A stretch of DNA of 64,000 nt from assembly GCA_014803485.1 (NCBI GenBank), contig JAAVBQ010000035.1, positions 7,428 to 71,427 of the forward strand, given 5' to 3'. Position numbers and translations under genes: made by a program. Shown here in pieces: positions 23,953 through 39,753 of the stretch (position 1 is its first letter; the number at the start of each line of letters is the position of its first letter). Origin of the DNA: a bacterium (GTDB taxonomy: Bacteria > Bacteroidota > Bacteroidia > Bacteroidales > P3). The notes beneath the pieces were generated by a model. It had not been told where the DNA came from, made no database searches, and was given only the letters and a program-made list of their open reading frames with translations.

Positions 23953-23955
23953 GAA

Positions 23956-24585
23956 TTATTTTTCTTCCGTTGCGGCAGCCTTTTCTTGCTCAAAATAACT
24001 CTCGCATTCCGCTTTCCAAGGCATTTTGTCGTAGTCGGGATGCTTGCTAAAATCGTGGCAAGCTTCCTGCATCTTGCCCTCGTTCATCAGAGCATAACCC
24101 CTATCCAAATAGGCATTCGTATAAGTAGAATCCGCCTCAATCACCTTAGTATAAATACGGATTCTATCTTGATCGGTGATAGTAGGCAATTCATCCAATT
24201 CCATCAAAATCACCTCTACTCGCTTGCCATAGGTGATTTGCAACTTCTTTTTCGCAGTCTCGTAATTCTCCTTGTATTCAGCCTTATCTGGAAAAATCGC
24301 ACTCATACCCCCGTAAAAATCCTTATCGGCATAGGTTGCCAAAAAATCATCACTTATGGTAGGCCGGAACTTGAGGTATTCCGCAAGTGCCTCCTTATAT
24401 TTTTCGGCTTGCATAAGTTCCAATAAGTTTTCGGGAAGCTCAACACCTCTAGGATTCCCACCATCGCCTATAATAACTGTTGTATCGGCCTGCGCCTCTA
24501 CTACCGCCGTGCTATCGGCGGTCTGCGCCTGCACAGCCCAACATCCGAACAAGCCAAAAAAGCTTATCAAAATCAACTTTTTCAT
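23956..24585 (-). CDS. Small secreted protein with a TPR-like C-terminal motif, 209 aa (tandem paralogue)
   Basis: Signal peptide MKKLILISFFGLFGCWAVQAQ. C-terminal TKVIEADSTYTNAYLDRGYALMNEGKMQEACHDFSKHPD aligns with its neighbour. Confidence 0.6.
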   Translation of the reverse strand: MKKLILISFFGLFGCWAVQAQTADSTAVVEAQADTTVIIGDGGNPRGVELPENLLELMQAEKYKEALAEYLKFRPTISDDFLATYADKDFYGGMSAIFPDKAEYKENYETAKKKLQITYGKRVEVILMELDELPTITDQDRIRIYTKVIEADSTYTNAYLDRGYALMNEGKMQEACHDFSKHPDYDKMPWKAECESYFEQEKAAATEEK

Positions 24586-24635
24586 AGTATCTCGTTTTTA
24601 AATAAGTTTCTGCAAAAATAAGGATTTCTTTACAA

Positions 24636-25100
24636 TTAGCGCACACGGCGTTTGTGGTATTTAATCGGGCCGCTGGCCGCGGAAGCAAAGCCCCCGTGCG
24701 TTTGGTCCTCGAGGCTCTGCATACCCTCCTCTCTCAATTTGGCCTCCTTTTCAAGATCAGCCCGCCATTTGCCCTCTATTTTTCTAAGATCGAGCGTCTT
24801 TTGCGCACGGTTGAGCGTATAGCTCAGCGTGGCCTGGTGTTTGTTGTCTTTATCGATTCGCAACTCCTTAATGGCCAGTTCGGGCGCTTCCTGCTTGGCA
24901 TAGGGATTGAGCGAAAGGTTTTCGGCCCTTTCGTCTATAAGCGCATGCGATACGGGCGTGGCGTATTGCTTGGCCTTGGCGAAATCGAGGTCTGTGTAGT
25001 AGGCTTTCAGAAAGGCACGGCCCGTTTTTTCGGCCTGCTGCTTGCCACTGCAGGCACATAGGCACAAGGGAAGAATGAGTAAAAGGAGGTGTTTTTTCAT
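24636..25100 (-). CDS. Small lipoprotein, unknown function, 154 aa
   Basis: Lipobox MKKHLLLLILPLCLCAC-SG. Sits 5 nt downstream of T1 in the same operon. Confidence 0.6.
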   Translation of the reverse strand: MKKHLLLLILPLCLCACSGKQQAEKTGRAFLKAYYTDLDFAKAKQYATPVSHALIDERAENLSLNPYAKQEAPELAIKELRIDKDNKHQATLSYTLNRAQKTLDLRKIEGKWRADLEKEAKLREEGMQSLEDQTHGGFASAASGPIKYHKRRVR

Positions 25101-25105
25101 ACTTA

Positions 25106-26677
25106 TCAGGGGTATTTTAGTATCACAATGCTATCGGGGCGTATCCGCTCCATGCGCGAAAAGCGCTTGGCCTCGGCCGCGCTGGTGCGTATGGGGCGGT
25201 TGGAAAATTCGGGCACGTTGAACGAGCGGAAGAAGCTTAGATAGAAAGCGGGGTCTTTCTGCGGCAACAAAAAGGGTTTGTGCGAAACCCCCAAGCTGTC
25301 TATATAGGTGAAATAGGGGCGGGAATAGAGATTGTCCTCGCGCTTGGTGCTATACATAAGCCAAGACCCTTTGCTGCTGAAGGTATGGTAGCTTTCGGTG
25401 TAGGGGCTGTTTACATTCTCCATTTTCTTGACGGGATAGAGAAAGCCTGGCTTGCGTTCAAAGCCCTCGCCCTCGCTGTCGGAGAGATTGAGCAAGTAGA
25501 GGTCGCTTTCCGGGTGGCGGATGGGGAAGGTGCCGTGGTCGCTAAGACAGACGGCCAAAAAGCATCCATCGGGCGAAAGACGCGGAAAGGAAACGGTATA
25601 TCCTGCCACGGCCGCGTTAATGACGGTGTCGATGCGCCCGAAAGTGCGCGTGGAATCGTTAAAGGCCACGCGGATTAGGTTGTAGCGGATTTTTTTGGAA
25701 AAATCCACATCGTCTTCCTCGGCATCGCGGGGCGGATTGGGGCTTTGGCATACATAGAGCCATTGGCCGTCCGGGCTCCAATAGGGGAAGGTTTCTTCGT
25801 TGAGGCTGTCGCAGAGGCGTTCGTCGGAAAAGATATAATTACGAACCGCATCGTAGAGAATAAGGTCTCCGAAGGAGTCGTAGACCTCGGTGCGGCGCAC
25901 AATGTCTTGGGCATGCACAAAGGGATAGGCCGAAGCCGTGCCGAAGGCGATAAGCTCCTTATTGGGGTGCCAGGCGGGATAGACGCCCCCTTGGGGAAAG
26001 CGCTGCGACTTGAGGTCTACCCGCAGGGTTTGTTCGGGCGTGATAATAAAGGTGCCCGTATGGTCGAAGCGCACGTGATAAACTATATAGTCTCCGTTGC
26101 TTTGGGCATAGGTGTGGCAATTCTCGCAGCCTATGTCTTGCAGGCGGTTGTCGAACAAAAAACGGCTTGTAGCGTCTTGCAGGTTGTATTCTATGGTCTG
26201 CAGCACCGAGGAGGTTTGATAACTGGGCTCTATAAGGCGGCAGCTGAAATAGGGGTCTATGCTGTCTTGCACCTGCCAGGTGAAAGCGTGGCGCTGCACA
26301 CCCTCTTGGGTTTGGAGGCTCAGTTGCACCCGCAGCGTATCGTGCAGGTTTTGCGCCAACAGCCTGTGCCATGCCTTGGGGCTAAAGCGCACCCTATGAC
26401 GGCCCTTGAGCCGCAGAGTATCGGGGCCGCTGCCATAGGCCTTGAGTTCGTAGCGGCTATGGGGCGGCAGTATATAGAAATTGAGGGGCGCGATATTGAC
26501 GGGTATCGTGCAATCGGCATAATCGGGGTAAAGATAGGCCTCGGGCGCGGAAAGATAGCGCATCTGCGCGAGATCGCTTTCGCGTACACGCGGGGAGCAG
26601 GCCACAAAACCTACGGCCATGGCCACAGCCACCAGCCCCCCAACTTTTCTAAATGGATTTTTCGGATTGCTTTGCAT
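25106..26677 (-). CDS. Family T1: lipoprotein with N-terminal domain, CENCH motif and TolB-like PD40 beta-propeller, 523 aa
   Basis: I chose the start MQSNPKNPFRKVGGLVAVAMAVGFVAC (lipobox) rather than the track's 26824 extension, which would lie inside M2. Motifs: YPDYADCTIPVNIAPLNF, DSIDPYFSCR, GCENCH, YPAWHPNKELIAFGT, FPYWSPDGQWLYVC, LSPDGCFLAV, FSSKGSWLMYSTKR, HKPFLLPQKDPAFY. Confidence 0.75.
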   Translation of the reverse strand: MQSNPKNPFRKVGGLVAVAMAVGFVACSPRVRESDLAQMRYLSAPEAYLYPDYADCTIPVNIAPLNFYILPPHSRYELKAYGSGPDTLRLKGRHRVRFSPKAWHRLLAQNLHDTLRVQLSLQTQEGVQRHAFTWQVQDSIDPYFSCRLIEPSYQTSSVLQTIEYNLQDATSRFLFDNRLQDIGCENCHTYAQSNGDYIVYHVRFDHTGTFIITPEQTLRVDLKSQRFPQGGVYPAWHPNKELIAFGTASAYPFVHAQDIVRRTEVYDSFGDLILYDAVRNYIFSDERLCDSLNEETFPYWSPDGQWLYVCQSPNPPRDAEEDDVDFSKKIRYNLIRVAFNDSTRTFGRIDTVINAAVAGYTVSFPRLSPDGCFLAVCLSDHGTFPIRHPESDLYLLNLSDSEGEGFERKPGFLYPVKKMENVNSPYTESYHTFSSKGSWLMYSTKREDNLYSRPYFTYIDSLGVSHKPFLLPQKDPAFYLSFFRSFNVPEFSNRPIRTSAAEAKRFSRMERIRPDSIVILKYP

Positions 26678-28505
26678 AGGAGGGGGGTTGGGGTTGTAGG
26701 GTTTGGGGAATCTCGTGCATATAGAGGTCGTAGAACCAATAGGTGTGCATCCATCTATGGGCCAAATCGGCAAACGAAATCTCGTCGCGCTGAAACTTAA
26801 GGTTGTCGAGCACAAAGAGTGCAAAATCGCGCTGCGTTTCGGCTTCTATTTCGTTTATATCGGTGGGCGTGGTGGCCGCTGCCGGCGAATAGCCCGCTAT
26901 AGCCAACAGGGCTTCCTGCACATGGCGGGGCATGCCTTGCGGATAGCATTCTTTTATCTGGCTGCGATGGGGACCAATATCTCCGGGATTCTTGTCAAGC
27001 AGGCAAAGCGCAAGGTAGTATTCGAAAAACAAAGGATTATAGCCCCTATAGAGGAAGTTGCGGCGGGCGTTCTTGTCGGGTTTATAGGCATCCACGGCAT
27101 AGTTGGAGGGGGGAAGCATGGCTCGTCCCCTTTCTATCTGCGCTTGGTTCACCGAGTCCTTGCCATGAAACAGACTTTGCCGCATAATATGCACGAATTT
27201 GGAGGCGGGCAGCGTATCGTTCAATATCAGGCTCACCTTGATAATCTCGCGCATCACCACAGGTGAATATATATGACTGGTTATCCAATCGTAGTTTTGG
27301 TGCAGGCTTTCGCTGAAATTGCCCGCATAGGCATAGTAAACGGGGGTTACGTAGGATTCGGGGCGGTTGACCAACTCAGAGGGAAAAAGGAAGGGAAAGG
27401 TGGAAAGCCTATAGGTGAAAATCTCCCCGCTGGCCTTGCCCGTGGCCAAAAGGCAGGTCTTGAGCTGGGCTTCGTAGAGCAAATCCTCGGCCAAATGACC
27501 CGTGGCGGCGGTTTGGTCGGGATAGGCTTTGTTGAGAAGTTGCAAAGCCTCTTGCCAGCGATATTCGCGGCAAAGCCGGTCTACCACAAAAAAACGGGAC
27601 ATAGGTTTGGCCTGCGTGGGCGTGATGCCGAGCGAGAAGAGACCTACCAAGAGGCAGAGCCCAATCGTTATATATCTGGAAATCTTGCCTTTTATCCATG
27701 CCCAAAGGGGCGAAGCCATCCATCCTACAATCCCCACCACCACACAAAGTGTGGCAAGAGGCTTCACATAGAAATAGCCGAAAGGCACTTGAATATAGTT
27801 GGTACTGATGGCGTATCCAAGGTTGTGCATCTTTAGGCCCGGCGAGAAAAAGGCATAGGGCTGCCAAATCCATACCCCCACGCAACACAAAACGCCTATC
27901 ACCAGCGTATAGAACGCCAGGCGTTTGAAAAATGCGGCCCAAGCACGGGCCTCGGCCAAACAATCCGAGAGGTCTATCAAGTTGTAGAACACCCAAGCCA
28001 CCAAAATATACTCGCGTATATAAAACACCAAAAAGGCCAAGTAGACGATGCGGAGCGCCATGCAGCGGGTTTTGCCGCAGGTTTTGCGCCAGACTACGCC
28101 GCCCAAGCCTGTGGCAAGAAACACGAGAGGCCAAATCATGAATGTTTGGGGAAACACAGGCAACAAACAGGCCGTGAGCGCAAAACCTATAAGGGTTTGC
28201 CCCGGGCTTTCCAGACCCGCCGCCATATTGAGGCTCCAAGCCGTCAGCGTGAGCAAAAGCGCACAGATAAGAACACCCAAGGCGGGATAGTAGGCAAACT
28301 GCACCAAGAAACTGTTGGTATAGAGCAACGGCCCCCATATTTCGCCGCGAAATTCATCCACATAGGAGGCCGAAAAGCGGAAAAGGGAGCTATGTGCTTC
28401 CCAACCCGCCAAAACTTCCCTGAGGCCGAAATAGAGCACGCAAAAGAATACCACCCCTGCAAGCAGGTAGGCAAGAAGTTTCCACAAGGCATTCTTTCGG
28501 TTCAT
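26649..28505 (-). CDS. Family M2: polytopic membrane protein, 618 aa
   Basis: ATG start MNRKNALWKLLAYLLAGVVFF is preferred over the upstream TTG at 28541, by analogy with the paralogue N-termini. About 9-10 hydrophobic helices, then a soluble C-terminal domain. Its 3' end overlaps the T1 start by 29 nt. Confidence 0.7.
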   Translation of the reverse strand: MNRKNALWKLLAYLLAGVVFFCVLYFGLREVLAGWEAHSSLFRFSASYVDEFRGEIWGPLLYTNSFLVQFAYYPALGVLICALLLTLTAWSLNMAAGLESPGQTLIGFALTACLLPVFPQTFMIWPLVFLATGLGGVVWRKTCGKTRCMALRIVYLAFLVFYIREYILVAWVFYNLIDLSDCLAEARAWAAFFKRLAFYTLVIGVLCCVGVWIWQPYAFFSPGLKMHNLGYAISTNYIQVPFGYFYVKPLATLCVVVGIVGWMASPLWAWIKGKISRYITIGLCLLVGLFSLGITPTQAKPMSRFFVVDRLCREYRWQEALQLLNKAYPDQTAATGHLAEDLLYEAQLKTCLLATGKASGEIFTYRLSTFPFLFPSELVNRPESYVTPVYYAYAGNFSESLHQNYDWITSHIYSPVVMREIIKVSLILNDTLPASKFVHIMRQSLFHGKDSVNQAQIERGRAMLPPSNYAVDAYKPDKNARRNFLYRGYNPLFFEYYLALCLLDKNPGDIGPHRSQIKECYPQGMPRHVQEALLAIAGYSPAAATTPTDINEIEAETQRDFALFVLDNLKFQRDEISFADLAHRWMHTYWFYDLYMHEIPQTLQPQPPSYAKQSEKSI

Positions 28506-28561
28506 AGTGCTTCTTTGCGTGTGCGCGTAGTTTTGGCGCAAGCGCGAAAATACAAAAAAAC

Positions 28562-28569
28562 TATCTTTG
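28562..28569 (+). promoter_or_regulatory. Candidate -7 box TATCTTTG for the plus arm of the array (near-leaderless T2)
   Basis: Exact TAnnTTTG match ending 4 nt before the ATG at 28574, in the 68-nt divergent gap between M2 and T2. Confidence 0.4.
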
Positions 28570-28573
28570 TAGC

Positions 28574-30220
28574 ATGAAAGGCTTTATTTCCTGTTTGCGT
28601 TTTGCCGCCGTGGGCTTGGCGACGACCCTGGTCGCGGGCTTGGGACTGTGGGCTTTTACGGCCTGCCGTGGCCCGCATGGAGAGGCTTTGCCTCTTGGGG
28701 TTTCGGCCACCGAGGCGGTGTTTCCCTACGATACCGACAGCATTTGCATTCCCTCCAACATAGCGCCGCTCAACTTCTGCCTGCGCCCCGCCTCGAGCTG
28801 GAGCCAACCGCAGGTGCGGATGTGTTTCTTTAACCGCGAGGGGGCTTCGGTGGCTTCGTTTGGCGTGCCTATGGGCAAGAACGGGAGCCGCATTCCGCTC
28901 AAGAAGTGGCGCAAGGCTTTGCAGAAAGCCGCCGGGGGGCAGATTTTGGTGGAGGTTTCGGCTGTTAGGGAAGGGGTTTTGTATAGGTTAGAGCCTTTGC
29001 ATTGGTTTGTGAGCCAAGATGCCATAGACCCTTATCTGCTTTTCCGCGCCAGCCAATACGAGGAGGGGGAACATGGTTGGGTGTTTCTGCGCCAACGCCG
29101 GCTCACCGATTTCGAAACCCGCCAGGTGCTCGACAACCGCCTTATGGACAAGAACTGCATGAACTGCCACGATTGCTACGATCATAGGGCTTCGCACATG
29201 GTGGTGCATCTGCGCGAGGCGCATAAGGGTACCTTGCTGATAAACGGCAAGGAGGCACACAAGATACAGGTGCCGGCCAACTATCAGATACGGCTCACCT
29301 ACCCTGCCTGGCATCCTTCGGGGCGCTACGTGGCTTTCTCCACCAACCTGCCCCATTCGGTGCACTACGCCAACGCCACGCATAAAATCATCTATACGCT
29401 CGATACGCTCAGCGATATTGTTGTGTTGGACGTGGAGAACATGAGGCTGTTTTCTTGCCCCGAACTGACGCGCGAGGAGGACGAGGCGGTTTTCCCCACT
29501 TGGAGCCGCGATGGAAAACGTTTGTATTTCTGTGTGTCGCCGCACAAACGCTACGACAGCCTGCCCTATCCGCAATATGCCGACACAAGTTTGGGATTCC
29601 GTCAGAACCGTGTGGAACAGGTGTGGGCCGATTTGATGCAGATGGATTTTGACCCCGAGACGGAGCGTTTCTCGAACTTCGCCTGCACCTATCCTTTCTC
29701 GCAGATGCAGAAAAGCGCGTGTATGCCCAAGCTCTCGCCCGACGGCAAGTATATGGTGGTTTCTTTGCTCAAGGCCAGCACGTTTCCCTTGCAGAACTTG
29801 GGCGATTTCTACAGGTTGAACTTGCAGGACTCCACCGTGGAGGAGCTGCGCGAGCTCAATACGGAGGGTTCGGAAAAGGGGCATTCGTTTTCTTCGTCGG
29901 GAAAGTGGATGGTGTTTTCCAGCAGCCGGCGCACGTTGGCTATTCCTGAAACCTATATCACACATTACGATTCTGTTTCGGGGCATTTTTCGAAGCCTTT
30001 CTTGGTGCCGCAGAAGTGGGGCGATTTCTACCTCACCAATCTGCGGGGTTTTGTATTTCCCGTATTGAGCACCGAACCTGCGGCTTTGCAGGCGCGGGCT
30101 TTGGCGGGGGTGGCTCGGGAGGAGGCCATGGACTTGCAGATAGATACTTCGTTGGAGGGTTTCCGCATTACCGACGAGGAATTGGAGGCGGGCACCGTGC
30201 AATTTGTGGGAGGGCATTAG
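28574..30220 (+). CDS. Family T2: lipoprotein with N-terminal domain, CMNCH motif and TolB-like PD40 beta-propeller, 548 aa
   Basis: Lipobox LWAFTAC. Motifs: IPSNIAPLNF, DAIDPYLLFR, NCMNCH (29156-29170), YPAWHPSGRYVAFST, FPTWSRDGKRLYFC, LSPDGKYMVVS, FSSSGKWMVFSSSR, SKPFLVPQK. Ends ...FVGGH. Confidence 0.8.
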   Translation: MKGFISCLRFAAVGLATTLVAGLGLWAFTACRGPHGEALPLGVSATEAVFPYDTDSICIPSNIAPLNFCLRPASSWSQPQVRMCFFNREGASVASFGVPMGKNGSRIPLKKWRKALQKAAGGQILVEVSAVREGVLYRLEPLHWFVSQDAIDPYLLFRASQYEEGEHGWVFLRQRRLTDFETRQVLDNRLMDKNCMNCHDCYDHRASHMVVHLREAHKGTLLINGKEAHKIQVPANYQIRLTYPAWHPSGRYVAFSTNLPHSVHYANATHKIIYTLDTLSDIVVLDVENMRLFSCPELTREEDEAVFPTWSRDGKRLYFCVSPHKRYDSLPYPQYADTSLGFRQNRVEQVWADLMQMDFDPETERFSNFACTYPFSQMQKSACMPKLSPDGKYMVVSLLKASTFPLQNLGDFYRLNLQDSTVEELRELNTEGSEKGHSFSSSGKWMVFSSSRRTLAIPETYITHYDSVSGHFSKPFLVPQKWGDFYLTNLRGFVFPVLSTEPAALQARALAGVAREEAMDLQIDTSLEGFRITDEELEAGTVQFVGGH

Positions 30221-30221
30221 C

Positions 30222-31727
30222 ATGAAAAAGGGATTAGGTGTGGCCTTGGTGGTTGTTGCGGCGGGTTTCTGCCTGCTGTGGTATCTGCCCTACTTCCACA
30301 ATCAGTTTCAGATTGGTTTCTTTGCCTATACGCGCACGTTTGTGCGGGCTTTCTTTGAGGGGCCCTGGACGGGCAGGGCCGAGAGCGCGGGTTTGGTGGC
30401 GGCTACGGGCCTGCACCCCCGCATAGGCGAATTTCTGTGGCGTTTCGTGAGTCAATTCTATATCAATACGCCTTGCATCCTCTTGGCGGCGGGTTTGGTG
30501 ACGGCGGCTTTCTGCCGGCTTTCGTGGGCCGTGGTGCGCGAATACACGCTGCTTCTGCTGCCTGTATTCTTCTATTTTTTCACAAATCCCGAACCTGCTA
30601 TGGCGGGTTGGAGCATGTATTTGCTGTTGGGTATGGGTTTGCTGGCGCTTTGCGTGCGGATTTTTCGGTGGCGCTTCAGGCTTGGTGCGGATGGGGGTTG
30701 GGGCCGGTTGGCGGGGGCTTTGGCGGCCTTTGCCTGCGTGCCGGTCTTTGTGTTTTGCGCGCATCATAACACCTTGGAAATAAATCTTTTGCAGGTGCGA
30801 CAGGCGGCCTGTGCGGGCAACTACGAGCGTTGTTTTGAAATTAGCGACCGTGTTTGCCGCGAAAGAGCGGGCGTGCCTTTGGATGAGGAAACCGAAGCCG
30901 TGCAGGTGCAACGGATGGAGATGACGGCTTGGCTCAAGCTTTCGCTCTTGCAGACGGGGCGGCTCAACAATATGTTTTTGGAGTATGGGGATGTGCCGTT
31001 GATGGGCGGTATGTTCGGTTCGGACTTCCCCTATATGAACGAATGCGCCTATCCTTATGTGCTGTTGCAGGATTGCTTAGGGGTGTATGCGCCGCAGGTG
31101 CCTTTCATTCTTTCTTCTTTTGAGAAAAAAGGCTGGCAGAACCGTTTTGTGGAGCCTTTGCTGCGGGCCGAACTGCATACGGGGCAAGGACGTTTGCTCC
31201 AAAAGAGTCTGCGCTATGCCTCGCGCACGTTGGCACATCGGAAAGTGGCACTCGAAATGCCTTGTGCTGTGGAAGATGGTTCGCGGCCCGTGCCTTTGCA
31301 GTCGGCTTCGTTGGTGCGGGGCGGCAATCATTTAGACGGCTGGGTGAAGCTCTATGCCGAGGGATTTCCGGGCAAGCCTGCGGAAATGTCTGTGCCGCTT
31401 TGGGAATACTATACGCTTCTGTGTCTGCTCGAAAAGCGGCTCGACCGCGTGGAATTCCTGGCCGAACAGGCTTCGCAACTCGGCTGCAAGACGCTTCCCG
31501 CCTATATGCAGGAGGCGGTGTGCTTTATGCGCAACTATCCTTCTTCCCTCTCCCGCAAACAGATGCTCGAAACGCCCTACAAGGGCTATCATCTCAACCT
31601 CAACGTGTTGGAAGAGGTGGAAGACGTGTATAGGACGTGGGCGCTCTATCATATTGGGAAAATGGATTTTATGGAGGCTTCGCGTCTCTATCGCCATACT
31701 TTTACATTTCGGTTTTATTTTTTGTAA
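30222..31727 (+). CDS. Family M3: polytopic membrane protein, 501 aa
   Basis: ATG lies 1 nt after the T2 stop (MKKGLGVALVVVAAGFCLLWYL). Motifs: LPYFHNQFQIGFFAYTRTFVRAFFEG, GEFLWRFVSQFYINTP, LKLSLLQTGRLNN, LYAPQVPFI-type segment, C-terminus YRHTFTFRFYFL. Confidence 0.75.
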   Translation: MKKGLGVALVVVAAGFCLLWYLPYFHNQFQIGFFAYTRTFVRAFFEGPWTGRAESAGLVAATGLHPRIGEFLWRFVSQFYINTPCILLAAGLVTAAFCRLSWAVVREYTLLLLPVFFYFFTNPEPAMAGWSMYLLLGMGLLALCVRIFRWRFRLGADGGWGRLAGALAAFACVPVFVFCAHHNTLEINLLQVRQAACAGNYERCFEISDRVCRERAGVPLDEETEAVQVQRMEMTAWLKLSLLQTGRLNNMFLEYGDVPLMGGMFGSDFPYMNECAYPYVLLQDCLGVYAPQVPFILSSFEKKGWQNRFVEPLLRAELHTGQGRLLQKSLRYASRTLAHRKVALEMPCAVEDGSRPVPLQSASLVRGGNHLDGWVKLYAEGFPGKPAEMSVPLWEYYTLLCLLEKRLDRVEFLAEQASQLGCKTLPAYMQEAVCFMRNYPSSLSRKQMLETPYKGYHLNLNVLEEVEDVYRTWALYHIGKMDFMEASRLYRHTFTFRFYFL

Positions 31728-31729
31728 TC

Positions 31730-33331
31730 ATGAGGACTGTGAGTTTGCTTTTGGGAATGGTTGCGGCGGGTCTTTTCTGCGCCTGCGGACGGGTGGAGCC
31801 TCCCTCGGCCAATATCTATCCCGACTATGCCGACGGCATTGTGATTCCCTGCAATATCGCACCCCTCAATTTCCTTATGGCAGACGGGCGGACGCACCGT
31901 GTGCGCGTGGAGGCCTGCAACAGCCTTGGAAACCTGTTGGGTTCGCACACGTATAACCGATGCAAGAAGTTGATTTTTAAGGAGTCGGATTGGCGGGACA
32001 TGCTAGCTTCGGCAACGGGTGGTTTTCTGCGGATTGTGGTGGACGATACGGCCTCGCGCCTGTGGCGGATTTCATCGGACAGCATAGACCCTTATTTGGT
32101 GTATCGTCTTGGGCCTCACGACCAAAACACGGGCGGGCGGCTCCAAGTATACGAGCGCAATATCACGGATTTTTCGCATAGATGCCTGATGGATAATCTA
32201 CAGACCGAAAACAACTGCATGAATTGCCATAGTTTGGGGGCGGATGCGAAAATGGTGTTTCACGTGCGGGAGGCCTTTGCGGGCACGGTGATAACCGACG
32301 GCAAGGGAGCTTCGCTCAAAATCTCGGTGCCCGCCCGCTATGGTTTCCGTCTTTCCTACCCTGCCTGGAGCCCCAACGGGCGTTATATCGCCTTCGCCAC
32401 CACGCGCATTGCGCCCGTGCAGTTTGTGAATCCGCACCGCACCCAAGACCTCATGCCCGATGTGGCGGCCTGGATTGTGCTCTACGACACGCGGCAGAAC
32501 CGTTTGTTTTCCTGCCCCGCCCTCACCGACACGGCTTTCTGTTTTTCGTTTCCCACCTGGGCGCCCGATGGCAAGAGCCTCTATTTCTGCCGCACGCCCC
32601 ACATGGAGGTGTGGAATTTGCCGCAGGAGCGGGAAAAGGAGTGTTTGGCGGAGTTCCGCTACGATTTGTTCCGCATTGATTTTGATGCGGATAGCGAGAC
32701 TTTCGGAGAACCCGAAATGGTGTATTCGCCTCTCGGCGGCAATTTTGGCGGCGCGGCGGGCGACAGCGTCAACCGCAGCGCTTCCATTCCGAGCGCAAGC
32801 CCCGACGGAAAATTTCTGTTTGTATCGACGGTGATGATGGGGTCTTTTCCTTCTCAAAATCAAGGAGATTTGATTCTTCTGCAATGGGACAGCACAGAGG
32901 ACGGACGGGCATACTTGCGCGAAGTGCATACGCCGGGCTTCAACTCGCCCGACGCAGACCGGCGCGGGGTGTGGAGTGCCAGCGGCAAGTGGTTTGTGTT
33001 CACTTCCAAACGGGAATCGGGGGCGCAGTCGCTTCTGTATCTGGCGCATTTCGACGGCTCCGCTCCCGACGAGCAGAAGATTTCCAAGCCGTTTGTGTTG
33101 CCGCAGAAGCAGCCCGACCACTATATCTGGAACACACGGTCTTATACGTTTCCTGTGTTTAGCGGCAAGCCGCTTCCTTTTGATGGGAAAACGTATAAAG
33201 ATATTGTGGAACAGCCTCTTTCCGAACCCGATATGATGTTTTTCGACACTTCGGGCATGGTGTCGGGAAGCGTGGACGCCACCTCCGGCGCCTCGCAAGC
33301 AGTTTCCTCCGCCAACTTCGGCGGACACTAA
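31730..33331 (+). CDS. Family T3: lipoprotein with N-terminal domain, CMNCH motif and TolB-like PD40 beta-propeller, 533 aa
   Basis: Start MRTVSLLLGMVAAGLFCAC lies 2 nt after the M3 stop; the track's 31637 extension would overlap M3. Motifs: YPDYADGIVIPCNIAPLNF, DSIDPYLVYR, NCMNCH (32216-32230), YPAWSPNGRYIAFAT, FPTWAPDGKSLYFC, ASPDGKFLFVS, WSASGKWFVFTSKR, SKPFVLPQKQPDHY. Ends ...NFGGH. Confidence 0.8.
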   Translation: MRTVSLLLGMVAAGLFCACGRVEPPSANIYPDYADGIVIPCNIAPLNFLMADGRTHRVRVEACNSLGNLLGSHTYNRCKKLIFKESDWRDMLASATGGFLRIVVDDTASRLWRISSDSIDPYLVYRLGPHDQNTGGRLQVYERNITDFSHRCLMDNLQTENNCMNCHSLGADAKMVFHVREAFAGTVITDGKGASLKISVPARYGFRLSYPAWSPNGRYIAFATTRIAPVQFVNPHRTQDLMPDVAAWIVLYDTRQNRLFSCPALTDTAFCFSFPTWAPDGKSLYFCRTPHMEVWNLPQEREKECLAEFRYDLFRIDFDADSETFGEPEMVYSPLGGNFGGAAGDSVNRSASIPSASPDGKFLFVSTVMMGSFPSQNQGDLILLQWDSTEDGRAYLREVHTPGFNSPDADRRGVWSASGKWFVFTSKRESGAQSLLYLAHFDGSAPDEQKISKPFVLPQKQPDHYIWNTRSYTFPVFSGKPLPFDGKTYKDIVEQPLSEPDMMFFDTSGMVSGSVDATSGASQAVSSANFGGH

Positions 33332-33372
33332 CGGAGTGTGGTTCACCATATATTAATATAAATATTGAATTG

Positions 33373-34449
33373 ATGAAAACAAGGATTTGGGTGATTTTCT
33401 GTGTGGCGGCTCTGCTGACGGCTTGCAAGGAGTCTTCCGACAACATGGACAAGAAGTTGCAGAAAATGGAGCGGCTGTGCTTGGAGGAGCGCTATGAGGA
33501 GGCCGTGGCGTTTGCCGATGATTATTGGTTTTCTCACCCTTGCCCGATAAGCGATTTGGTGAACGGGCAGAACACGCTTTACGAGGGGCTTTCGGAGGAC
33601 GAAATCATTTTCCGTCTGCGTCTTGCGTCCTATACGAAAACGGCTCTCATCGGCTCGGGTAGCCTTGTTTCGCGCTTCTTCTCCTACTACCGCATTCCCG
33701 AAATCTACAATGGTATGGAAGACGGGGCGATAGGAGAATATTCGTTGGCGGGTATGCTCCGTCAGCGGGCGTTGGATAATCCGACGGCGGTTTATTGCAC
33801 GGGTATCAACATCATAGAGAAAGACGGAGTGCAGGGCGAGGTGGTTTCGCTCATGGTGCCGGCCATGATGGCGTGCGGGCAGTGGACTTTGGCGGAGCGG
33901 TATATCTATGTGTTGGCTGGGATAAAGGGCTGGAAAAAAGAGGCTTTGAAGTATAGTGAGGTGGTGGCGTTCTTACAGGCTTCTTCGGTTTCGGACGAGG
34001 TTTCGGACGACGTGCGGGCTTTGGCTGAAAAAATCACTGCCTATGGTCAAAAGGGCCTCACCGACTACATGAACGACACATGGAGCCTGGAGGAGAACTG
34101 CCGTGCAAGATGGCAACAAAATCCCTCCTCTTTTTCCGTCTTAAATTGTATTATTATATTTGACATGCTCCGCAAGAATCTGGAGCATGCGGCCTCTTTG
34201 CTGCCTGCCTACGGGCAGCTGCCGCGTCCTTTGCAGGAGATGATCTGCATCATGCAGCGGGAAATGTTCCCGATTGCCGATTCGGTTCAAGCATTTTTGA
34301 AGGATTTTCCTGTGGATGAAAGTGTGGAGCGGAATTTCCGCCGTTTCCTGCACGATTTTTCGCTTTGGCAGCAAGGTCAGAAGACCGCCGAAGAACTCAC
34401 CGCCGAATACGGCCACACCTACCCCTACCGCTACTACCTGATTTATTAA
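33373..34449 (+). CDS. Family Ms: lipoprotein resembling only the soluble C-terminal domain of family M (no TM block), 358 aa
   Basis: ATG at 33373 gives MKTRIWVIFCVAALLTAC (lipobox). The body is helical-repeat-like. The C-terminus YGHTYPYRYYLIY matches the aromatic tails of M1, M3 and M4. Confidence 0.6.
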   Translation: MKTRIWVIFCVAALLTACKESSDNMDKKLQKMERLCLEERYEEAVAFADDYWFSHPCPISDLVNGQNTLYEGLSEDEIIFRLRLASYTKTALIGSGSLVSRFFSYYRIPEIYNGMEDGAIGEYSLAGMLRQRALDNPTAVYCTGINIIEKDGVQGEVVSLMVPAMMACGQWTLAERYIYVLAGIKGWKKEALKYSEVVAFLQASSVSDEVSDDVRALAEKITAYGQKGLTDYMNDTWSLEENCRARWQQNPSSFSVLNCIIIFDMLRKNLEHAASLLPAYGQLPRPLQEMICIMQREMFPIADSVQAFLKDFPVDESVERNFRRFLHDFSLWQQGQKTAEELTAEYGHTYPYRYYLIY

Positions 34450-34462
34450 AATTGTGTACCAT

Positions 34463-34493
34463 TTTGGTACGCGTTTGTTTTTTCATATCTTTG
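34463..34493 (+). promoter_or_regulatory. Candidate Bacteroidota promoter (TTTG -33 at 34463-34466, TATCTTTG -7 at 34486-34493)
   Basis: 19-nt spacing between the two elements, 22 nt upstream of the ATG at 34516. The -33 element lies inside the palindrome gtaccattttggtac (34456-34470). Confidence 0.45.
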
Positions 34494-34515
34494 TATCGAA
34501 AAAATACATAAAGAT

Positions 34516-34794
34516 ATGCTTACAGTCAGTGCCCGCGAATTTCGGACGAACCAACGCCATTATCTTGACCAAGTGAAGCAAGGCTTGGAGTTGCTCATTA
34601 CGCGCAAGAAAGATGCCTTTAAGGTGTCGAGTGTGAAGAAGGACGACACTTTGATGACCAAGGAGGAATTCTTTGCCAAGATAGATCGTGCCAAGGAGCA
34701 GGCGCGGCAGAGGTTGGGATATGAGATGAAGCCGGGAGAGTCTTTCGAAGATTTTTTTCAACGCGTGAAAAAAGAAAGACATGTACAAGGTTGA
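34516..34794 (+). CDS. Phd/YefM-like type II antitoxin-family protein, 92 aa, with no recognisable toxin partner
   Basis: The N-terminus MLTVSAREFRTNQRHYLDQVKQGLELLITRKKDAFKV matches the usual Phd/YefM pattern (xxVSxxEFRxNxxxxLDxV...I.R). The C-terminal half is charged and helical. Confidence 0.55.
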   Translation: MLTVSAREFRTNQRHYLDQVKQGLELLITRKKDAFKVSSVKKDDTLMTKEEFFAKIDRAKEQARQRLGYEMKPGESFEDFFQRVKKERHVQG

Positions 34795-36373
34795 TTATAT
34801 TGGATTTTTACGTAATATACGGACTTGGGTGTGGACGGTGGCGTGTGCGGGGGTGTTGGTGACGGGATGCGGCAGGACTATCGGCGATGGTGTCGAAAGC
34901 GATTTTGCGGCACCGCTCTACCCGGACTATGGCGACAGCTTGGTGATTCCCTGCAATATCGCGCCGCTGAACTTTGCCCTACCCGATTCGTTCACAAAAA
35001 TTTGTGTGGAGATAGGTGTGGAGAACCCGCAGGGGACGGCGACAACAAAGCGTCTCCGTGCCGGAAAACGCGGTGTGGTCTTTCCTCCGAAATACTGGAC
35101 GGAACTGCTACGGGAAGCCCACACTTCACAAAACCCTATCTGTCTTGTTGTTAAAGCACGTGCTGCGAGTGGCCGAAACTACACTTTCCCTATGGTGCAT
35201 TGGCGCGTGGCCGACTCCATAGATTCCTACCTCACCTATCGTCTTGTGCAACCCACCGACGGCGTGTATAACGAGTTGGATTTGTGGGAGCGTTGCATGG
35301 AAGATTTTTCGACCCGTAAGTTGGTGTCCAACAGCCTGATGAACCACAACTGCTTCAACTGTCACACCTACCACAACGGCGATGCGGCCTCGATGAGCCT
35401 GCACTTCCGCAACCCCTCGAACGGCACGCTGCTGATGGTGAACGGCGATTTGAAGAAAATCCGCGTGCCCTCGCAGGAAGAACTTGCCGAGATGTTGCCG
35501 CCCGAAAAGCGGATGCCTCTCAATCTCGTCTATCCCGCATGGCACCCCGGGGGCGATTGGATAGTGTTTTCCACCCGCATCGAAGGGGTGGGCGGCTACG
35601 CGGCGCACAAGCGCTTCTTCAACCTCCTCGATACGGCTTCCAATCTCGTGTTGTATGATGTGATTCACAATCAATTGGTTTTCGATACGTTGGTGTGGAC
35701 GGAAGATTTTGAGGAAACATGGCCGGCCTGGAGCGCCGACGGGGAATGGCTGTATTTCTGCCGCACGGACAAGGTGAGCGCCGACACGGTGGCCCGCTAC
35801 GCCAACCCTACCGATAGGGTGCGGCATATCTATTTCGACTTGGTGCGGGTGCGTTTTTCGGCTGCCGAGGGGCGTTTTGTGCCGCCCGTGGAGGTGTTGG
35901 CGCATGGTGGGCCCGGTGGCAGTTATTCGGTGCCGCGTATGAATCCCAACGGAGATATTTTAGTGTATTGCAAGGCTTTGTTCAATTCGGTGCCCTATCA
36001 TGCCTACGGCGACTTGTTGGCTATGGATAGGGACGGGAACGCCATCGACTGCGCGGTGCTCAATTCGCCCGAATCGGAGAGTTGGCACGAATGGAGTTCG
36101 AACGGCAAATGGCTGGTTTTTGCGAGCAAGCGGGGCGACGGCCTCTATTCCCTGCCCTACTTTTCCTATTTCGACGGAAAATCGTTCCACAGGCCTTTCC
36201 TTTTGCCGCAACAAGACCCTCGCTTCTATCAAACTTTCCTCAAGGCCTTCAACCTCCCCACCTTGGTGCGCAACGCCTCTCCCCTCACCCCCCAACAGGC
36301 CGCCGCGTTACAGAAAGAGGGCTTGGAAAACGATTTCCCCACCCCCGCCAACCACCAACACTTAGCCCATTAG
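34781..36373 (+). CDS. Family T4: lipoprotein with N-terminal domain, CFNCH motif and TolB-like PD40 beta-propeller, 530 aa
   Basis: Lipobox GVLVTGC. Motifs: YPDYGDSLVIPCNIAPLNF, DSIDSYLTYR, NCFNCH (35351-35365), YPAWHPGGDWIVFST, WPAWSADGEWLYFC, MNPNGDILVY, WSSNGKWLVFASKR, HRPFLLPQQDPRFY. The start overlaps the antitoxin-like gene by 14 nt. Confidence 0.8.
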   Translation: MYKVDYIGFLRNIRTWVWTVACAGVLVTGCGRTIGDGVESDFAAPLYPDYGDSLVIPCNIAPLNFALPDSFTKICVEIGVENPQGTATTKRLRAGKRGVVFPPKYWTELLREAHTSQNPICLVVKARAASGRNYTFPMVHWRVADSIDSYLTYRLVQPTDGVYNELDLWERCMEDFSTRKLVSNSLMNHNCFNCHTYHNGDAASMSLHFRNPSNGTLLMVNGDLKKIRVPSQEELAEMLPPEKRMPLNLVYPAWHPGGDWIVFSTRIEGVGGYAAHKRFFNLLDTASNLVLYDVIHNQLVFDTLVWTEDFEETWPAWSADGEWLYFCRTDKVSADTVARYANPTDRVRHIYFDLVRVRFSAAEGRFVPPVEVLAHGGPGGSYSVPRMNPNGDILVYCKALFNSVPYHAYGDLLAMDRDGNAIDCAVLNSPESESWHEWSSNGKWLVFASKRGDGLYSLPYFSYFDGKSFHRPFLLPQQDPRFYQTFLKAFNLPTLVRNASPLTPQQAAALQKEGLENDFPTPANHQHLAH

Positions 36374-37920
36374 TGGCCGGAGTCTTGGGATGTGGGGGTA
36401 GATTGAGGGGTGAAGGCGCTTAGGTCGGGGATGTGGGCGGTTTGCAGGCTCCATTGCCGCCACTTCTGCGGATTGAGCGGCGAAGGGGTGCGGCTGAATA
36501 CAGGGAAAATCTGCATGCGCGTGTTCCTTTTATAATAATACGGATTTCTCTCAGGAATAACAAAGGGCGTGGAAAAACGGGCGGCCGCAGGCTGGCCCTC
36601 CGCACTATCGCTCTCGAAATGCGCTATATACAAAGCCGAATTGGAGCCGTTCTGCATCTTGCTCCTATACACCGCCCACTTGCCGTCCACGCTCCAGCCT
36701 GCGGCCGCCTCGCCGTCGGGACTGTTGAGTTCGTCTAAGGCGCGAAGTGTGTCTTTTTCGGTATCTATCAAATAAATATCACCCTGATTTTGCGAAGCGT
36801 GCGAGCCCATCATCATGGCCGAAACCAAGATATACCGCCCCTCGGGATGCACGGCGGGCATGGCCGCGCTCACGTGGCTGCGGCTCACGGCACTCACTAA
36901 TTCGGGTTCTCCGAAAGTATCCGTATCGGGATTGAAATCAATTTTATAGACATCATATCGGAAAGCGATAAGCGCTTCTTTCTCGTTTTCGGGAGTAAGG
37001 CTGTCTAAAGGAAGCGTGGCCGTGCGGCAGAAATAAAGGGTGCGGCCGTCGGCGCTCCACGCGGGGAAAGTGTATTGAAAGGCGGTGTCGCTCAGCGCGG
37101 GGACGGTGAAGATGCGGTCGCGGAGAATGTCGTAGAGCACGATGCGCCCGCCGTAGTCGGCGATAAGGTCTTGGGTGCGGTGGGGATTGACGTAGTTGAA
37201 AGGTGCTATCTTGGTGGTAGCAAAAGCAATATAGGGGTGCATGGGGTTGTGGGCGGGATAGGAAAGACGGAAATCGTAGGTGGCGGGGACGGCAATCTTG
37301 ACGGCGGTGTCGGCCTGAATGACAAGGGTGCCGGCGTGGGCGCCGCGTATGTGGACAATCATACGCTCGGCGTTCCCGGCGCCCACCGCATGGCAGTTCA
37401 TGCAGTTGTTGTCGGTGAGGGCGTTGTCGATAAGTAATTTATGTTCAAAGTCCTGCAAGGAGCGTTGGTAGACTTGCAGGCGGCCTCCGGGGTTGTCGTC
37501 GAAGGGGCCGGAACGGTAAATCACATAGGGATCTATGCTGTCGGGGCTGATTTTCCACGAAAAGGGCGCGAAGGTATCGATGTGGATTTTGAAAGCGCCG
37601 TGATTGGCAACAGCCTGCGAGGTGAGTTTGCGCCAAGTGCGGAGCGAAAACTGCACCTTGCCCCGCGTTTTCATCGTGAGGAAATCGACCGCCGCGCCCA
37701 TGCTGTCGCAGACATCAATCCGCACGTGGTGGCGACGGGTGCCGTTGTCGCCGATATAGAAATTGAGGGGCGCGATGTTGCAGGGCAACACCAAATCCTT
37801 GCCATAATCGGGGTAGATGAGGGTTTCGGCAGTCTCCGACTGCCTACATCCCACCGCCGCGAAAGCCACCGCTGTTATTGCCAAAACCCTATATATAAAT
37901 TTTTTAAATATCATCTTCAC
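36370..37920 (-). CDS. Family T5: lipoprotein with N-terminal domain, CMNCH motif and TolB-like PD40 beta-propeller, 516 aa
   Basis: Lipobox AFAAVGC. Motifs: YPDYGKDLVLPCNIAPLNF, DSIDPYVIYR, NCMNCH (37390-37404), YPAHNPMHPYIAFAT, FPAWSADGRTLYFC, VHPEGRYILVS, WSVDGKWAVYRSK, STPFVIPERNPYYY. Closest paralogue of T3. Ends ...DSGH. Confidence 0.8.
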   Translation of the reverse strand: MKMIFKKFIYRVLAITAVAFAAVGCRQSETAETLIYPDYGKDLVLPCNIAPLNFYIGDNGTRRHHVRIDVCDSMGAAVDFLTMKTRGKVQFSLRTWRKLTSQAVANHGAFKIHIDTFAPFSWKISPDSIDPYVIYRSGPFDDNPGGRLQVYQRSLQDFEHKLLIDNALTDNNCMNCHAVGAGNAERMIVHIRGAHAGTLVIQADTAVKIAVPATYDFRLSYPAHNPMHPYIAFATTKIAPFNYVNPHRTQDLIADYGGRIVLYDILRDRIFTVPALSDTAFQYTFPAWSADGRTLYFCRTATLPLDSLTPENEKEALIAFRYDVYKIDFNPDTDTFGEPELVSAVSRSHVSAAMPAVHPEGRYILVSAMMMGSHASQNQGDIYLIDTEKDTLRALDELNSPDGEAAAGWSVDGKWAVYRSKMQNGSNSALYIAHFESDSAEGQPAAARFSTPFVIPERNPYYYKRNTRMQIFPVFSRTPSPLNPQKWRQWSLQTAHIPDLSAFTPQSTPTSQDSGH

Positions 37921-37926
37921 TTAAAT

Positions 37927-39753
37927 TTACATCATTTTTCCGAAGAGGTAGTGGTAGGTGTAGGTGGAGGCGTATTGGCGGGTGAGGTCGGCGAAGCTTT
38001 CCCGGCCGTTCTGCACCAAATAGCGGGCCCTATACACGGCGTCCACTCTCTCGAAATTGTCTATATTAATATGAAAACCGTCGAAATCACGACGCAGGAT
38101 AATTTGCGGATTCTCGCCCTGCTCCATGCACCAAATACATAGCGCTTCCTGCACATATACAGGCAGTACAGACGCCCCGGCCGCAGCATAGGCCTTCACC
38201 ACGGCGGGCATAGCCCCAAGGTCCTTATCCAAAAGCAACAATAACGTGTAATAATCCAATAGTTCACGCTCCAACACCGCGCCTTCTTCCATGCGGCGCG
38301 CTCCGTAAATCCGCACCCATTCGTCGAGTGTCGTCCCTCCCCTCACCAATTCGGGAGAGGAAACGGGCACGGGGCGGGCTCCGTCTTCGGCACCGACACA
38401 GGCGGGCGCCGACACGCGCTGTCCGTAGAGCGTGTTTTTTACGTAGCGTTCCGTAATCTTCGCCAAACGAATTTGTTGGGTTCCGTATTCGGCGGCAAGC
38501 AAGGGTGCCGCCAGGCGGTTTTGATAGCCAACCTTTTCGGTGTAGGCAAAGATGAAAGGCACTTGCGGTGCGTATAGCCGCAGGGCATCGTAGGTTTTGA
38601 CATACGGCCACGCGCCCGCATAGGAAAACGGCAGGGCGGCGGGGTACATCAGATTCATTTCGTAGTAGTTGGAGTAGTCCAAAAAGCGGTTGCACAATTC
38701 ATCTTGCCGTAAAAGCGAAAGTTTGAGACAGGCGGCCAAAAGGAAGCGGTCTGCCGTGCTCTTTTCGTCTTTCATTTCGTCTTGGGTGGGGTGATATTTC
38801 TCGTAGTAACGGGCGCAGAGTTGCAGGCTGCGGGTGTAGTTGTCTTGTGCAATGGCGTTCTGCGCTTTGAGCAGGGTGCGCTCGAGGGGTGTTTGCAGGG
38901 AGAGGAAGCTCATGGCCAGCGCGAGGCCGAGGAAGGGCAGGAAAAGACGGGCTTCGTGGCGGCCAAAAATGCCTAAGCCCATGCCTATGATGAAGAGGGC
39001 GACCATCGCCCACACGTAGGGGGGATAGGCGAAAGCGGGGGTATAGGCCACATTCCATGCGAGCAGGGTGGCCAGCAGCAGGGCTACCAAGCCGCCGACC
39101 CAAGTTTTCGTGTTCACTTTTCCTACCACCAATATTAATACAAAACCAACCACAAACAACAAAGCCCATTTCCCGCCTATCACAAAACATAAAAGCGTAA
39201 CGACAAACAAGATGCAGGAGAATGCAAGGGGGTATATCTTCGTGCGCAGCAGTCTTGCCGTGAGGTTCAAAGCCACCATATCGAGCAGCAGGGCTATGGC
39301 AACGGCGGCGTGCAGGGGTTCGGGGTGGGTGAAGAAGTAGAAGAACAGGGGCAGTAGCAAGAGGGTGTAGACATGGGCGGTGGTGCGGCAACTGAGCAGA
39401 AAGAGGGTGGTGACGCCCGAGGCCACGAGCAAAGCGAGGGGCTTATTCAGGTAGAATTGGCTCACGAAGCGCCAAAGGAATTCGGCGATGCGGGCTTGCA
39501 GGACGTTGGGGGAGGTTCCTGCCCATAGTTCGGCATCGGAAAGGATGCCGTTTGTGGCGACAATTCCTTGTGATACACTTGCTTGTGTGCGAGAGAAGAG
39601 GCCGTCGAAAAAGGGGCGCACAAATTCGGGGAGGTAGCAGAAGAATGTGATGTGGCCTTGGTGCTCGAGGGCCGGCAGGGCGTAGAGCAGACAAAAGGCC
39701 GCGAAAGCCACCGCCGCCCCCCACGCTATGTAGGATTTTATGTGGCTCTTCAT
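37927..39753 (-). CDS. Family M4: polytopic membrane protein, 608 aa
   Basis: Start MKSHIKSYIAWGAAVAFAAFCLL at 39753 forms an ATGA overlap with the M5 stop; the track's 39972 extension would lie inside M5. Motifs: LPALEHQGHITFFCYLPEFVRPFFDG, AEFLWRFVSQFYLNKP, LKLSLLRQDELCN, LYAPQVPFIFAY, C-terminus YASTYTYHYLFGKMM. Closest paralogue of M3. Confidence 0.75.
   Translation of the reverse strand: MKSHIKSYIAWGAAVAFAAFCLLYALPALEHQGHITFFCYLPEFVRPFFDGLFSRTQASVSQGIVATNGILSDAELWAGTSPNVLQARIAEFLWRFVSQFYLNKPLALLVASGVTTLFLLSCRTTAHVYTLLLLPLFFYFFTHPEPLHAAVAIALLLDMVALNLTARLLRTKIYPLAFSCILFVVTLLCFVIGGKWALLFVVGFVLILVVGKVNTKTWVGGLVALLLATLLAWNVAYTPAFAYPPYVWAMVALFIIGMGLGIFGRHEARLFLPFLGLALAMSFLSLQTPLERTLLKAQNAIAQDNYTRSLQLCARYYEKYHPTQDEMKDEKSTADRFLLAACLKLSLLRQDELCNRFLDYSNYYEMNLMYPAALPFSYAGAWPYVKTYDALRLYAPQVPFIFAYTEKVGYQNRLAAPLLAAEYGTQQIRLAKITERYVKNTLYGQRVSAPACVGAEDGARPVPVSSPELVRGGTTLDEWVRIYGARRMEEGAVLERELLDYYTLLLLLDKDLGAMPAVVKAYAAAGASVLPVYVQEALCIWCMEQGENPQIILRRDFDGFHINIDNFERVDAVYRARYLVQNGRESFADLTRQYASTYTYHYLFGKMM

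Follow-up and report, generated by a model that had tools for sequence, protein, structure and literature searches.

An invariant CxNCH motif in TolB-like propeller lipoproteins paired with DUF6057 proteins in Bacteroidia

The window analysed here is a 64,000-nucleotide (nt) stretch of DNA from a Bacteroidales bacterium (GenBank assembly GCA_014803485.1, contig JAAVBQ010000035.1, forward-strand positions 7,428 to 71,427). It holds five genes for lipoproteins that share the motif Cys-x-Asn-Cys-His (CxNCH), designated T1 to T5, together with six genes for DUF6057 or DUF6057-like proteins, designated by the letter D. T1-T5 belong to a large family of Bacteroidia lipoproteins that has no name; its members face the periplasm and have a TolB-like architecture, and the motif is very nearly universal among them. 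CxNCH is an exact match to CXXCH, and an initial annotation of the window read it as a site of covalent heme c attachment. The genes, the conservation of the motif and its predicted structural setting are described below, followed by an assessment of what the site may be.

The T and DUF6057 gene array

The T array places five copies within 13 kb and is the largest among the sampled loci, the others having two to four copies. T1 (25106-26677, minus strand), an open reading frame (ORF) translation of 523 amino acids (aa), comprises an N-terminal beta domain, the motif in the form CENCH (26114-26128, minus strand) and a PD40 propeller; a 523-aa gene call for it is also found in a sister contig. 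T2 (28574-30220, plus strand, 548 aa) has the motif as CMNCH (29156-29170, plus strand), as does T3 (31730-33331, plus strand, 533 aa; motif at 32216-32230, plus strand), whose true start is Met32 of an ORF opening at 31637. T4 (34781-36373, plus strand, 530 aa) carries CFNCH (35351-35365, plus strand), and T5 (36370-37914, minus strand, 514 aa counted from its ATG) carries CMNCH (37390-37404, minus strand). These last two genes are convergent and their stop codons overlap. T2 to T5 are all gene calls. The five motifs lie exactly where the initial annotation had placed them, and its view that all five products are lipid-anchored is borne out by a lipobox cysteine in each: GFVAC in T1, AFTAC in T2, LFCAC in T3, LVTGC in T4 and AAVGC in T5. 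The paralogues show 29-33% identity to T1 and share 60 invariant positions, including both cysteines, the Asn and the His of the motif, together with a downstream His and the Arg that follows it at a distance of two residues.

The D genes are interleaved with the T genes. DUF6057 corresponds to Pfam family PF19529, with a gathering threshold of 29.8 bits, and all of the D products except D2 score above it. D1 (26649-28505, minus strand), a membrane protein of 618 aa scoring 127.4 bits, is encoded directly upstream of T1 and is 100% identical to the NCBI entry 'hypothetical protein HDR62_04905 [bacterium]'. The D1-T1 operon ends with D0 (21805-23262, minus strand, 485 aa, 63.9 bits). Between T2 and T3 lies D2 (30222-31727, plus strand), a DUF6057-like membrane protein of 501 aa with a sub-threshold score of 16.1 bits, the stop codon of which falls 2 nt ahead of the T3 start. 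D3 (33373-34449, plus strand, 358 aa, 61.7 bits) is itself a lipoprotein, with lipobox LLTAC, and consists of the TPR-like C-terminal half of DUF6057 alone. D5 (37927-39753, minus strand, 608 aa, 58.0 bits) is directly upstream of T5, and D6 (39750-41252, minus strand, 500 aa, 40.9 bits) is upstream of D5; both encode membrane proteins, and these two share with D2 the motif FxWRFVSQFY. D0, D2 and D5 are gene calls.

Conservation of the motif and of the two-gene module

When the window is translated in six frames, its ORFs of 100 aa or more contain CXXCH five times, each time as the motif of one of T1-T5. From composition, 0.94 occurrences would be expected in the window as a whole and 0.0065 in each T protein, and the presence of CxNCH in T1-T5 is confirmed not to be a matter of chance. 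A homologue search with T3 gave 322 relatives, and CxNCH is found in 120 of 120 homologues among the matches listed, the homologues examined reaching down to about 28% identity. The initial annotation had proposed a family alignment as a check on conservation. In such an alignment, of 125 sequences, C194, N196, C197, H198 and R211 (ORF numbering) are invariant, as proposed for the motif, whereas the supposed distal His is variable. The first variable position of the motif (X1) is almost always a hydrophobic residue of buried type, while Asn at the second (X2) never varies. A third cysteine, C287 in the sequence LYFC, is nearly invariant.

The residues flanking the motif, which the annotation had also singled out, are constant in the window and looser in the family. 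The upstream pattern (D/S)Nx(L/Q)xxx(N/G) is present in all five paralogues, but family-wide its Asn is kept in 86 of the 125 sequences and replaced by Tyr in 37 and by His in 2. Likewise, the downstream His is found in every window copy (VYHVRF, VVHLRE, VFHVRE, SLHFRN and IVHIRG), but across the alignment the position is His in 88 sequences, Tyr in 35 and Phe in 2. Among 302 members it is about 78% His and 13% Tyr, the rest being Gln, Phe, Gly or unresolved.

Broader sampling gives the same picture for the motif. A profile of the N-terminal domain, 186 positions long, was run against 1.84 billion cluster representatives and returned 1173 proteins at an expectation value (E) of 0.001 or lower, 607 of them at 1e-10 or lower. 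Among 148 further representatives listed from this search, 143 have CxNCH and two have CxxCH with a different X2 (CFSCH and CMHCH); the three that have no CxxCH are all 263-286 aa long. A genome scan at one genome per species identified at least 585 confirmed T loci, of which 80 species-level loci were kept for gene context and motif counts. CxxCH is present in 103 of the 104 T ORFs in these loci, the exception being a fragment of 123 aa. Taken together, these counts support strong selection on CxNCH within a set of exported, lipid-anchored proteins.

The titles of the 80 loci are mostly of Bacteroidia, including Parabacteroides distasonis, Odoribacter lunatus, Bacteroides, Phocaeicola and Alistipes, and also name Rikenellaceae, Prevotellaceae, Muribaculaceae, Dysgonomonas and Prolixibacteraceae. 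A few loci under non-Bacteroidia names are probably mis-binned contigs. The host had been described as of Bacteroidales type, with which both these titles and the T homologue search agree. At 50% identity the N-domain profile matches amount to 1173 clusters, and the P. distasonis cluster alone has 6087 members. Public names of the P. distasonis and O. lunatus members are 'TolB family protein', 'PD40 domain-containing protein' and 'hypothetical protein', and never cytochrome.

PD40 is the only Pfam family seen in T1-T5. In 92 family members scanned against Pfam, PD40 was found in all 92 and DPPIV_N in 33, while Cytochrom_C matched a single protein, below threshold (20.9 bits against a cut-off of 21.3). 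The N-terminal domain has an invariant IPxNIAPLNF motif of its own. Neither a five-paralogue T profile nor the N-domain profile gave a significant match in the PDB: the best was to the TolB-like Atu1656 (E 0.0036), and OmcS, at E 2.1, was matched over the motif only. Three of the 92 members weakly match the N-terminal barrel domain of TssR from the Bacteroidetes type VI secretion system (best E 1e-4), which is a possible lead on the N-domain fold. The literature searched for propeller lipoproteins with CXXCH in Bacteroidetes yielded no description. The family and its motif are known in databases under generic names only, and for the motif and its pairing with DUF6057 we found no published description.

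The pairing is the second conserved feature of the family. In the 80 loci, searched with an iterated hidden Markov model, a DUF6057 gene on the same strand and no more than 400 bp away accompanies 98 of 103 T genes. Of the five exceptions, three begin no further than about 250 nt from where the DNA of the locus ends. Beyond DUF6057 no other conserved neighbour was found in these loci, thiol-disulfide oxidoreductases and ccs/nrf genes included. One neighbour cluster present in 36 loci was discarded as an antisense shadow ORF inside T, and SusC/D-like clusters were set aside as generic. In the window, three small lipoprotein or TPR-like genes stand between T1 and D0 (24636-25100, 23956-24585 and 23266-23952, together spanning 23266-25100, minus strand); they were not recovered as conserved neighbours in the 80 loci and are lineage-specific, outside the conserved module. 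The two genes of the module are occasionally joined, as in the cluster representatives P0136, P0202 and P0216 (787-994 aa), which are natural DUF6057-T fusions whose T part has no lipobox. Because D3 is a lipoprotein and such fusions exist, the TPR-like half of DUF6057 would be located in the periplasm together with T. The DUF6057-CxNCH lipoprotein pairing and its occasional fusion are observations of the present analysis, and no paper in the literature searched mentions DUF6057.

The architecture of DUF6057 was approached through D1. Hydropathy and an all-alpha AlphaFold2 model, with a predicted local distance difference test score (pLDDT) of 69, together point to about 8-10 membrane helices, after which comes a TPR-like alpha-solenoid some 300 residues long. 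The model is mediocre since the homologue search returned only 13 close relatives, the same 13 being obtained when it was repeated with an alignment. A fold search with the model gave TPR/PPR-like matches only, none of them significant. At the level of prediction, DUF6057 is a polytopic domain of the inner membrane to which a TPR-like solenoid in the periplasm is attached. A role as a dedicated heme lyase of the CcsBA/CcmF kind was considered and rejected: a 14-sequence alignment contains no invariant His or Cys and no Trp-rich or WxWD motif, W[GA]xxWxWD occurs in no ORF of any locus, and the fold search, made with a model of pLDDT only 69, found no lyase.

Structural setting and nature of the CxNCH site

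An AlphaFold2 model of T3, built from a 122-sequence alignment, has a mean pLDDT of 88.8 and a predicted template modelling score of 0.89. It consists of a mostly beta N-terminal domain (residues ~30-160) followed by runs of four strands. The ten best Foldseek matches are all TolB (E 4e-13 to 5e-11, TM 0.41-0.56), followed by S9-peptidase propellers, and none of the top 50 PDB structural matches is a heme protein. In 533-aa numbering the motif is C163-M-N-C-H167. DSSP assigns a strand at 164-169, which covers the motif from M164 and runs on to L169, and a second strand at 175-179 (M-V-F-H178-V, followed by R180), so that the motif is predicted to lie in a hairpin with H178 and R180; strands 185-189 and 195-198 complete a four-strand unit. 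The motif strand is the first of these four, ahead of the first canonical PD40 strand, S-Y-P-A-W at 209-213. Read in this way, the model would put CxNCH on the first, innermost-type strand of the first blade of a propeller of about six blades, with C-M-N-C-H in the slot that ordinary PD40 blades fill with x-(Y/F)-P-x-W.

Covariation served as a weak independent check on the model (mutual information with average product correction; 321 sequences, effective number 237). Pairs 178-186 and 174-190 fall in the top 0.04% of all pairs and fit the second hairpin. Pairs 162-182/183 and 170-174/175, in the top 0.04-0.5%, agree on a single antiparallel register and fit a hairpin spanning the motif. Residue 169 covaries with residue 124 of the N-domain and with residue 478 in a C-terminal strand (top 0.01-0.02%). 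The covariation of residue 169 and of the hairpin pairs suggests that the motif strand packs against three elements, namely the N-domain, the second strand and a conserved C-terminal segment. A correct model would make H178 the cross-strand neighbour of C166 and H167 and not a ligand across a porphyrin.

We regard as moderately probable the reading that CxNCH is a family-specific, non-heme cysteine/histidine centre at the junction of N-domain and propeller, a putative metal-binding or thiol-redox site that may also have a structural share. In this proposal the motif strand would be hairpinned to the strand bearing the His or Tyr and the invariant Arg, and packed on an N-domain strand and on the conserved C-terminal strand. 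The occurrence of His, Tyr, Gln and Phe at the 'distal' position suits a hydrogen-bonding or second-shell role better than that of an obligatory ligand. We infer that each T protein is docked to the TPR-like domain of the DUF6057 protein with which it is paired, for which the IPxNIAPLNF peptide and the C-terminal tail are candidate contacts. The centre itself would bind a metal or act as a redox thiol pair on an envelope or periplasmic ligand, and the five diverged copies of the window may have different specificities. The C-termini have a feature of their own. T2, T3, T4 and T5 end in Gly or Ala followed by a terminal His (30215-30217, 33326-33328, 36368-36370 and 36373-36375, respectively), after a tail of low model confidence, and a final His is seen in about 43 of 302 members of the family, a final Gly-His in 16 of 120. 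Such a His may serve as a ligand, or as a signal by which the protein docks to its TPR-like partner.

Several points weigh against a non-heme centre. An invariant Cys-X-X-Cys-His, in which His directly follows the second Cys, is the classic signature of heme c. The T proteins are exported by the Sec route, and a heme lyase, CcsBA, is present in the order and reportedly acts on every CxxCH of a chain that has not yet folded (PMC13645880). The strand assignment comes from one model, with weak covariation as its sole check. An hhalign comparison of the first-blade segment with the other four blades gave no significant similarity, and for this reason the view of the motif strand as a diverged PD40 strand follows from the strand layout of the model only. 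Lastly, the family is uncharacterised, and it is from sequence and model that we infer the metal or redox chemistry of the site.

The strongest alternative is that CxNCH is a genuine heme c site, as the initial annotation had proposed. CcsBA would attach one heme to each T protein, His167 would be the proximal ligand, the downstream His or Tyr, some other residue or none would be distal, and the Arg would bind a propionate. The invariance of CxxCH over more than 300 sequences speaks for it, as do export by a lipoprotein signal and the His, Tyr and Arg downstream of the motif, which are typical of heme pockets. The machinery is also at hand in Bacteroidales: in B. thetaiotaomicron a fused CcsBA matures 'its six c-type cytochromes', and this lyase reportedly adds heme at every CxxCH in chains exported by Sec before they fold (PMC13645880). 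That work was the only item found in the literature searched on c-type cytochromes of Bacteroides. Heme attachment to the T proteins is therefore biologically feasible, since they are exported and the order has CcsBA. The near-threshold Cytochrom_C score of one homologue points the same way. So does an ORF of 510-524 aa found at a distance of about 8 kb from the T/DUF6057 module in two genomes of Rikenellaceae/Bacteroidales (L041, 18975-20546, minus strand; L045, 19222-20751, minus strand), in which an N-terminal tetraheme NapC/NrfH-like segment with four CXXCH motifs is fused to an FGE-sulfatase-like domain. Among the ORFs of the present window that were scanned against Pfam, which were not all of them, no cytochrome c maturation genes were seen.

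Geometry tells against heme. In c-type cytochromes CXXCH forms a helical turn, from which both thiols reach the heme vinyls and the His reaches the iron. Residues i and i+3 of a beta-strand point to opposite faces and are about 10 Å apart. Structural prediction had been named in the initial annotation as a check on the heme proposal, and AlphaFold2 places CxNCH in a strand, not in a helical turn. The six residues M164-L169 form that strand in a confident model, with a register weakly backed by covariation; a correct model would therefore exclude canonical heme attachment. The notion of a single heme domain fused to a propeller does not hold either, as the motif is in a propeller strand of the model and no separate domain is present. 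The downstream His is a poorly supported candidate for second axial ligand, since the residue varies between His, Tyr, Gln, Phe and Gly and is predicted to be a cross-strand neighbour beside the motif, although five-coordinate hemes do not require a distal ligand. No cytochrome family of Pfam is found in any of the five paralogues and no cytochrome fold was matched. In addition, the hydrophobic X1 and invariant Asn X2 mirror the (Y/F)-P of ordinary PD40 strands, and public annotation never calls a member a cytochrome. The heme reading accordingly keeps an exact, invariant and exported CXXCH in its favour, but on the whole we consider it doubtful.

The T proteins resemble established c-type cytochromes in their invariant CXXCH, Sec export, propeller, and nearby His/Tyr and Arg; they differ in having no detected cytochrome profile or fold and no conserved ligand at the candidate distal position. 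Enzymes that do combine heme c with a propeller, such as cytochrome cd1 nitrite reductase, quinohemoprotein alcohol dehydrogenase and the alpha subunit of hydrazine synthase, hold the heme in a separate, largely helical cytochrome domain, whereas the T motif is, according to the model, inside a blade strand.

It is improbable, in our estimate, that the cysteine pair has a purely structural task and no ligand-facing function, whether as a disulfide or, joined by the His, as a structural zinc site, and serves to staple the first blade or to close the ring of the propeller. Such a staple would suit the core strand positions of the motif near ring closure, the contacts of its strand with the N-domain and the C-terminal strand, and the nearly invariant third cysteine C287. 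However, four residues, Asn among them, are completely invariant, a far stronger conservation than structural Pro and Trp show in the remaining blades, and the three conserved cysteines of the mature protein make an odd number. Moreover, strand cysteines at i and i+3 face opposite sides, a poor local geometry for a disulfide, and structural zinc sites are uncommon in the periplasm.

Finally, orthology of T1-T5 with the TolB of the Tol-Pal system, with the motif incidental, is refuted and retains a very slight probability, for although TolB is the best structural match and public names include 'TolB family protein', the paralogues score 12.2-28.4 bits against an equivalog cut-off of 343 (TIGR02800), are five lipid-anchored copies and not a soluble periplasmic protein, have DUF6057 genes and not tolQRA or pal as neighbours, and possess an N-domain unrelated in sequence to any solved structure. 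The initial annotation had been right in separating them from TolB. The T family is like TolB (TIGR02800; PDB 1CRZ, 2HQS and 4JML) in joining an N-terminal domain to a PD40 propeller of about six blades, and T may bridge to an inner-membrane partner as TolB does with TolA. It differs in showing only 14-16% identity to TolB, in an N-domain that is mostly beta with invariant motifs of its own, in the CxNCH site and lipid anchor, in being often multi-copy, and in its pairing with DUF6057 in place of a tolQRA-tolB-pal-cpoB gene context. 'TolB-like' is thus right for the fold and wrong for the family membership. S9 peptidases (DPP-IV, prolyl tripeptidyl peptidase and acylaminoacyl peptidase) have similar PD40/DPPIV_N-type blades (Foldseek E ~1e-8), but the T proteins do not have the alpha/beta-hydrolase catalytic domain.

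Neighbouring genes and meaning of the family

The rest of the window holds several features of separate interest. A plus-strand ORF of 5316 aa (1041-16991) has no Pfam hit and is rich in Gly, Val, Arg, Ala and His; it is the antisense shadow of a giant minus-strand gene (3-17876). The latter encodes at least 5,950 aa with a signal peptide and continues past the start of the window, its product being 6601-8453 aa long in sister contigs. Its matches to Ig_7 (CHU_C-associated), SprB-repeat and PKD models suggest a giant surface adhesin of the kind carried as cargo by the type IX secretion system (T9SS). Two proteins with FGE-sulfatase domains are encoded between the adhesin gene and the DUF6057/T array (17920-19593, minus strand, 557 aa; 19620-21650, minus strand, 676 aa), the 557-aa one having a hydrophobic, signal-like N-terminal segment.

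Within the array, a 92-aa ORF resembling PhdYeFM antitoxins (34516-34794, plus strand) overlaps the start of T4. In two sister contigs an additional RelB/PIN toxin-antitoxin pair, absent from the window, is located between T3 and D3 (L081, 4413-5106; L083, 2896-3589). Beyond the array, the segment 44000-48000 has a GC content of 41-43%, against about 55%, and codes for an outer membrane beta-barrel protein, a Peptidase_C10 protein that bears a C-terminal sorting domain for the T9SS, and a protein with a Peptidase_S74 (endosialidase chaperone) domain. This low-GC island was probably acquired horizontally. A neighbouring helicase gene had no match when compared with plasmids.

Should the heme reading be true, the T proteins would form a novel class, that of propeller lipoproteins which are c-type cytochromes and work together with DUF6057. 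The fuller claim, that the family is an unrecognised and very widespread class of c-type cytochromes across gut and environmental Bacteroidia, with heme bound covalently at the propeller entrance instead of in a cytochrome domain and with each protein coupled to its own DUF6057 partner in the inner membrane, seems to us rather unlikely. Were it correct, it would reveal a multi-copy periplasmic redox or heme-handling system in organisms thought to hold few c-type cytochromes. Attached heme would also enlarge the cytochrome c repertoire of anaerobic gut Bacteroidales and provide a new structural context for heme c.

The novelty of the T family lies in the way a PD40/TolB-like propeller lipoprotein combines a novel N-domain with an invariant Cys/His site and has a membrane partner dedicated to it. 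The family spans common genera of the human gut, namely Parabacteroides, Bacteroides, Phocaeicola, Alistipes and Odoribacter, and extends to Prevotellaceae. An absolutely conserved Cys-x-Asn-Cys-His in a two-gene envelope module marks a specific biochemical function, be it based on heme, a metal or a redox thiol pair.

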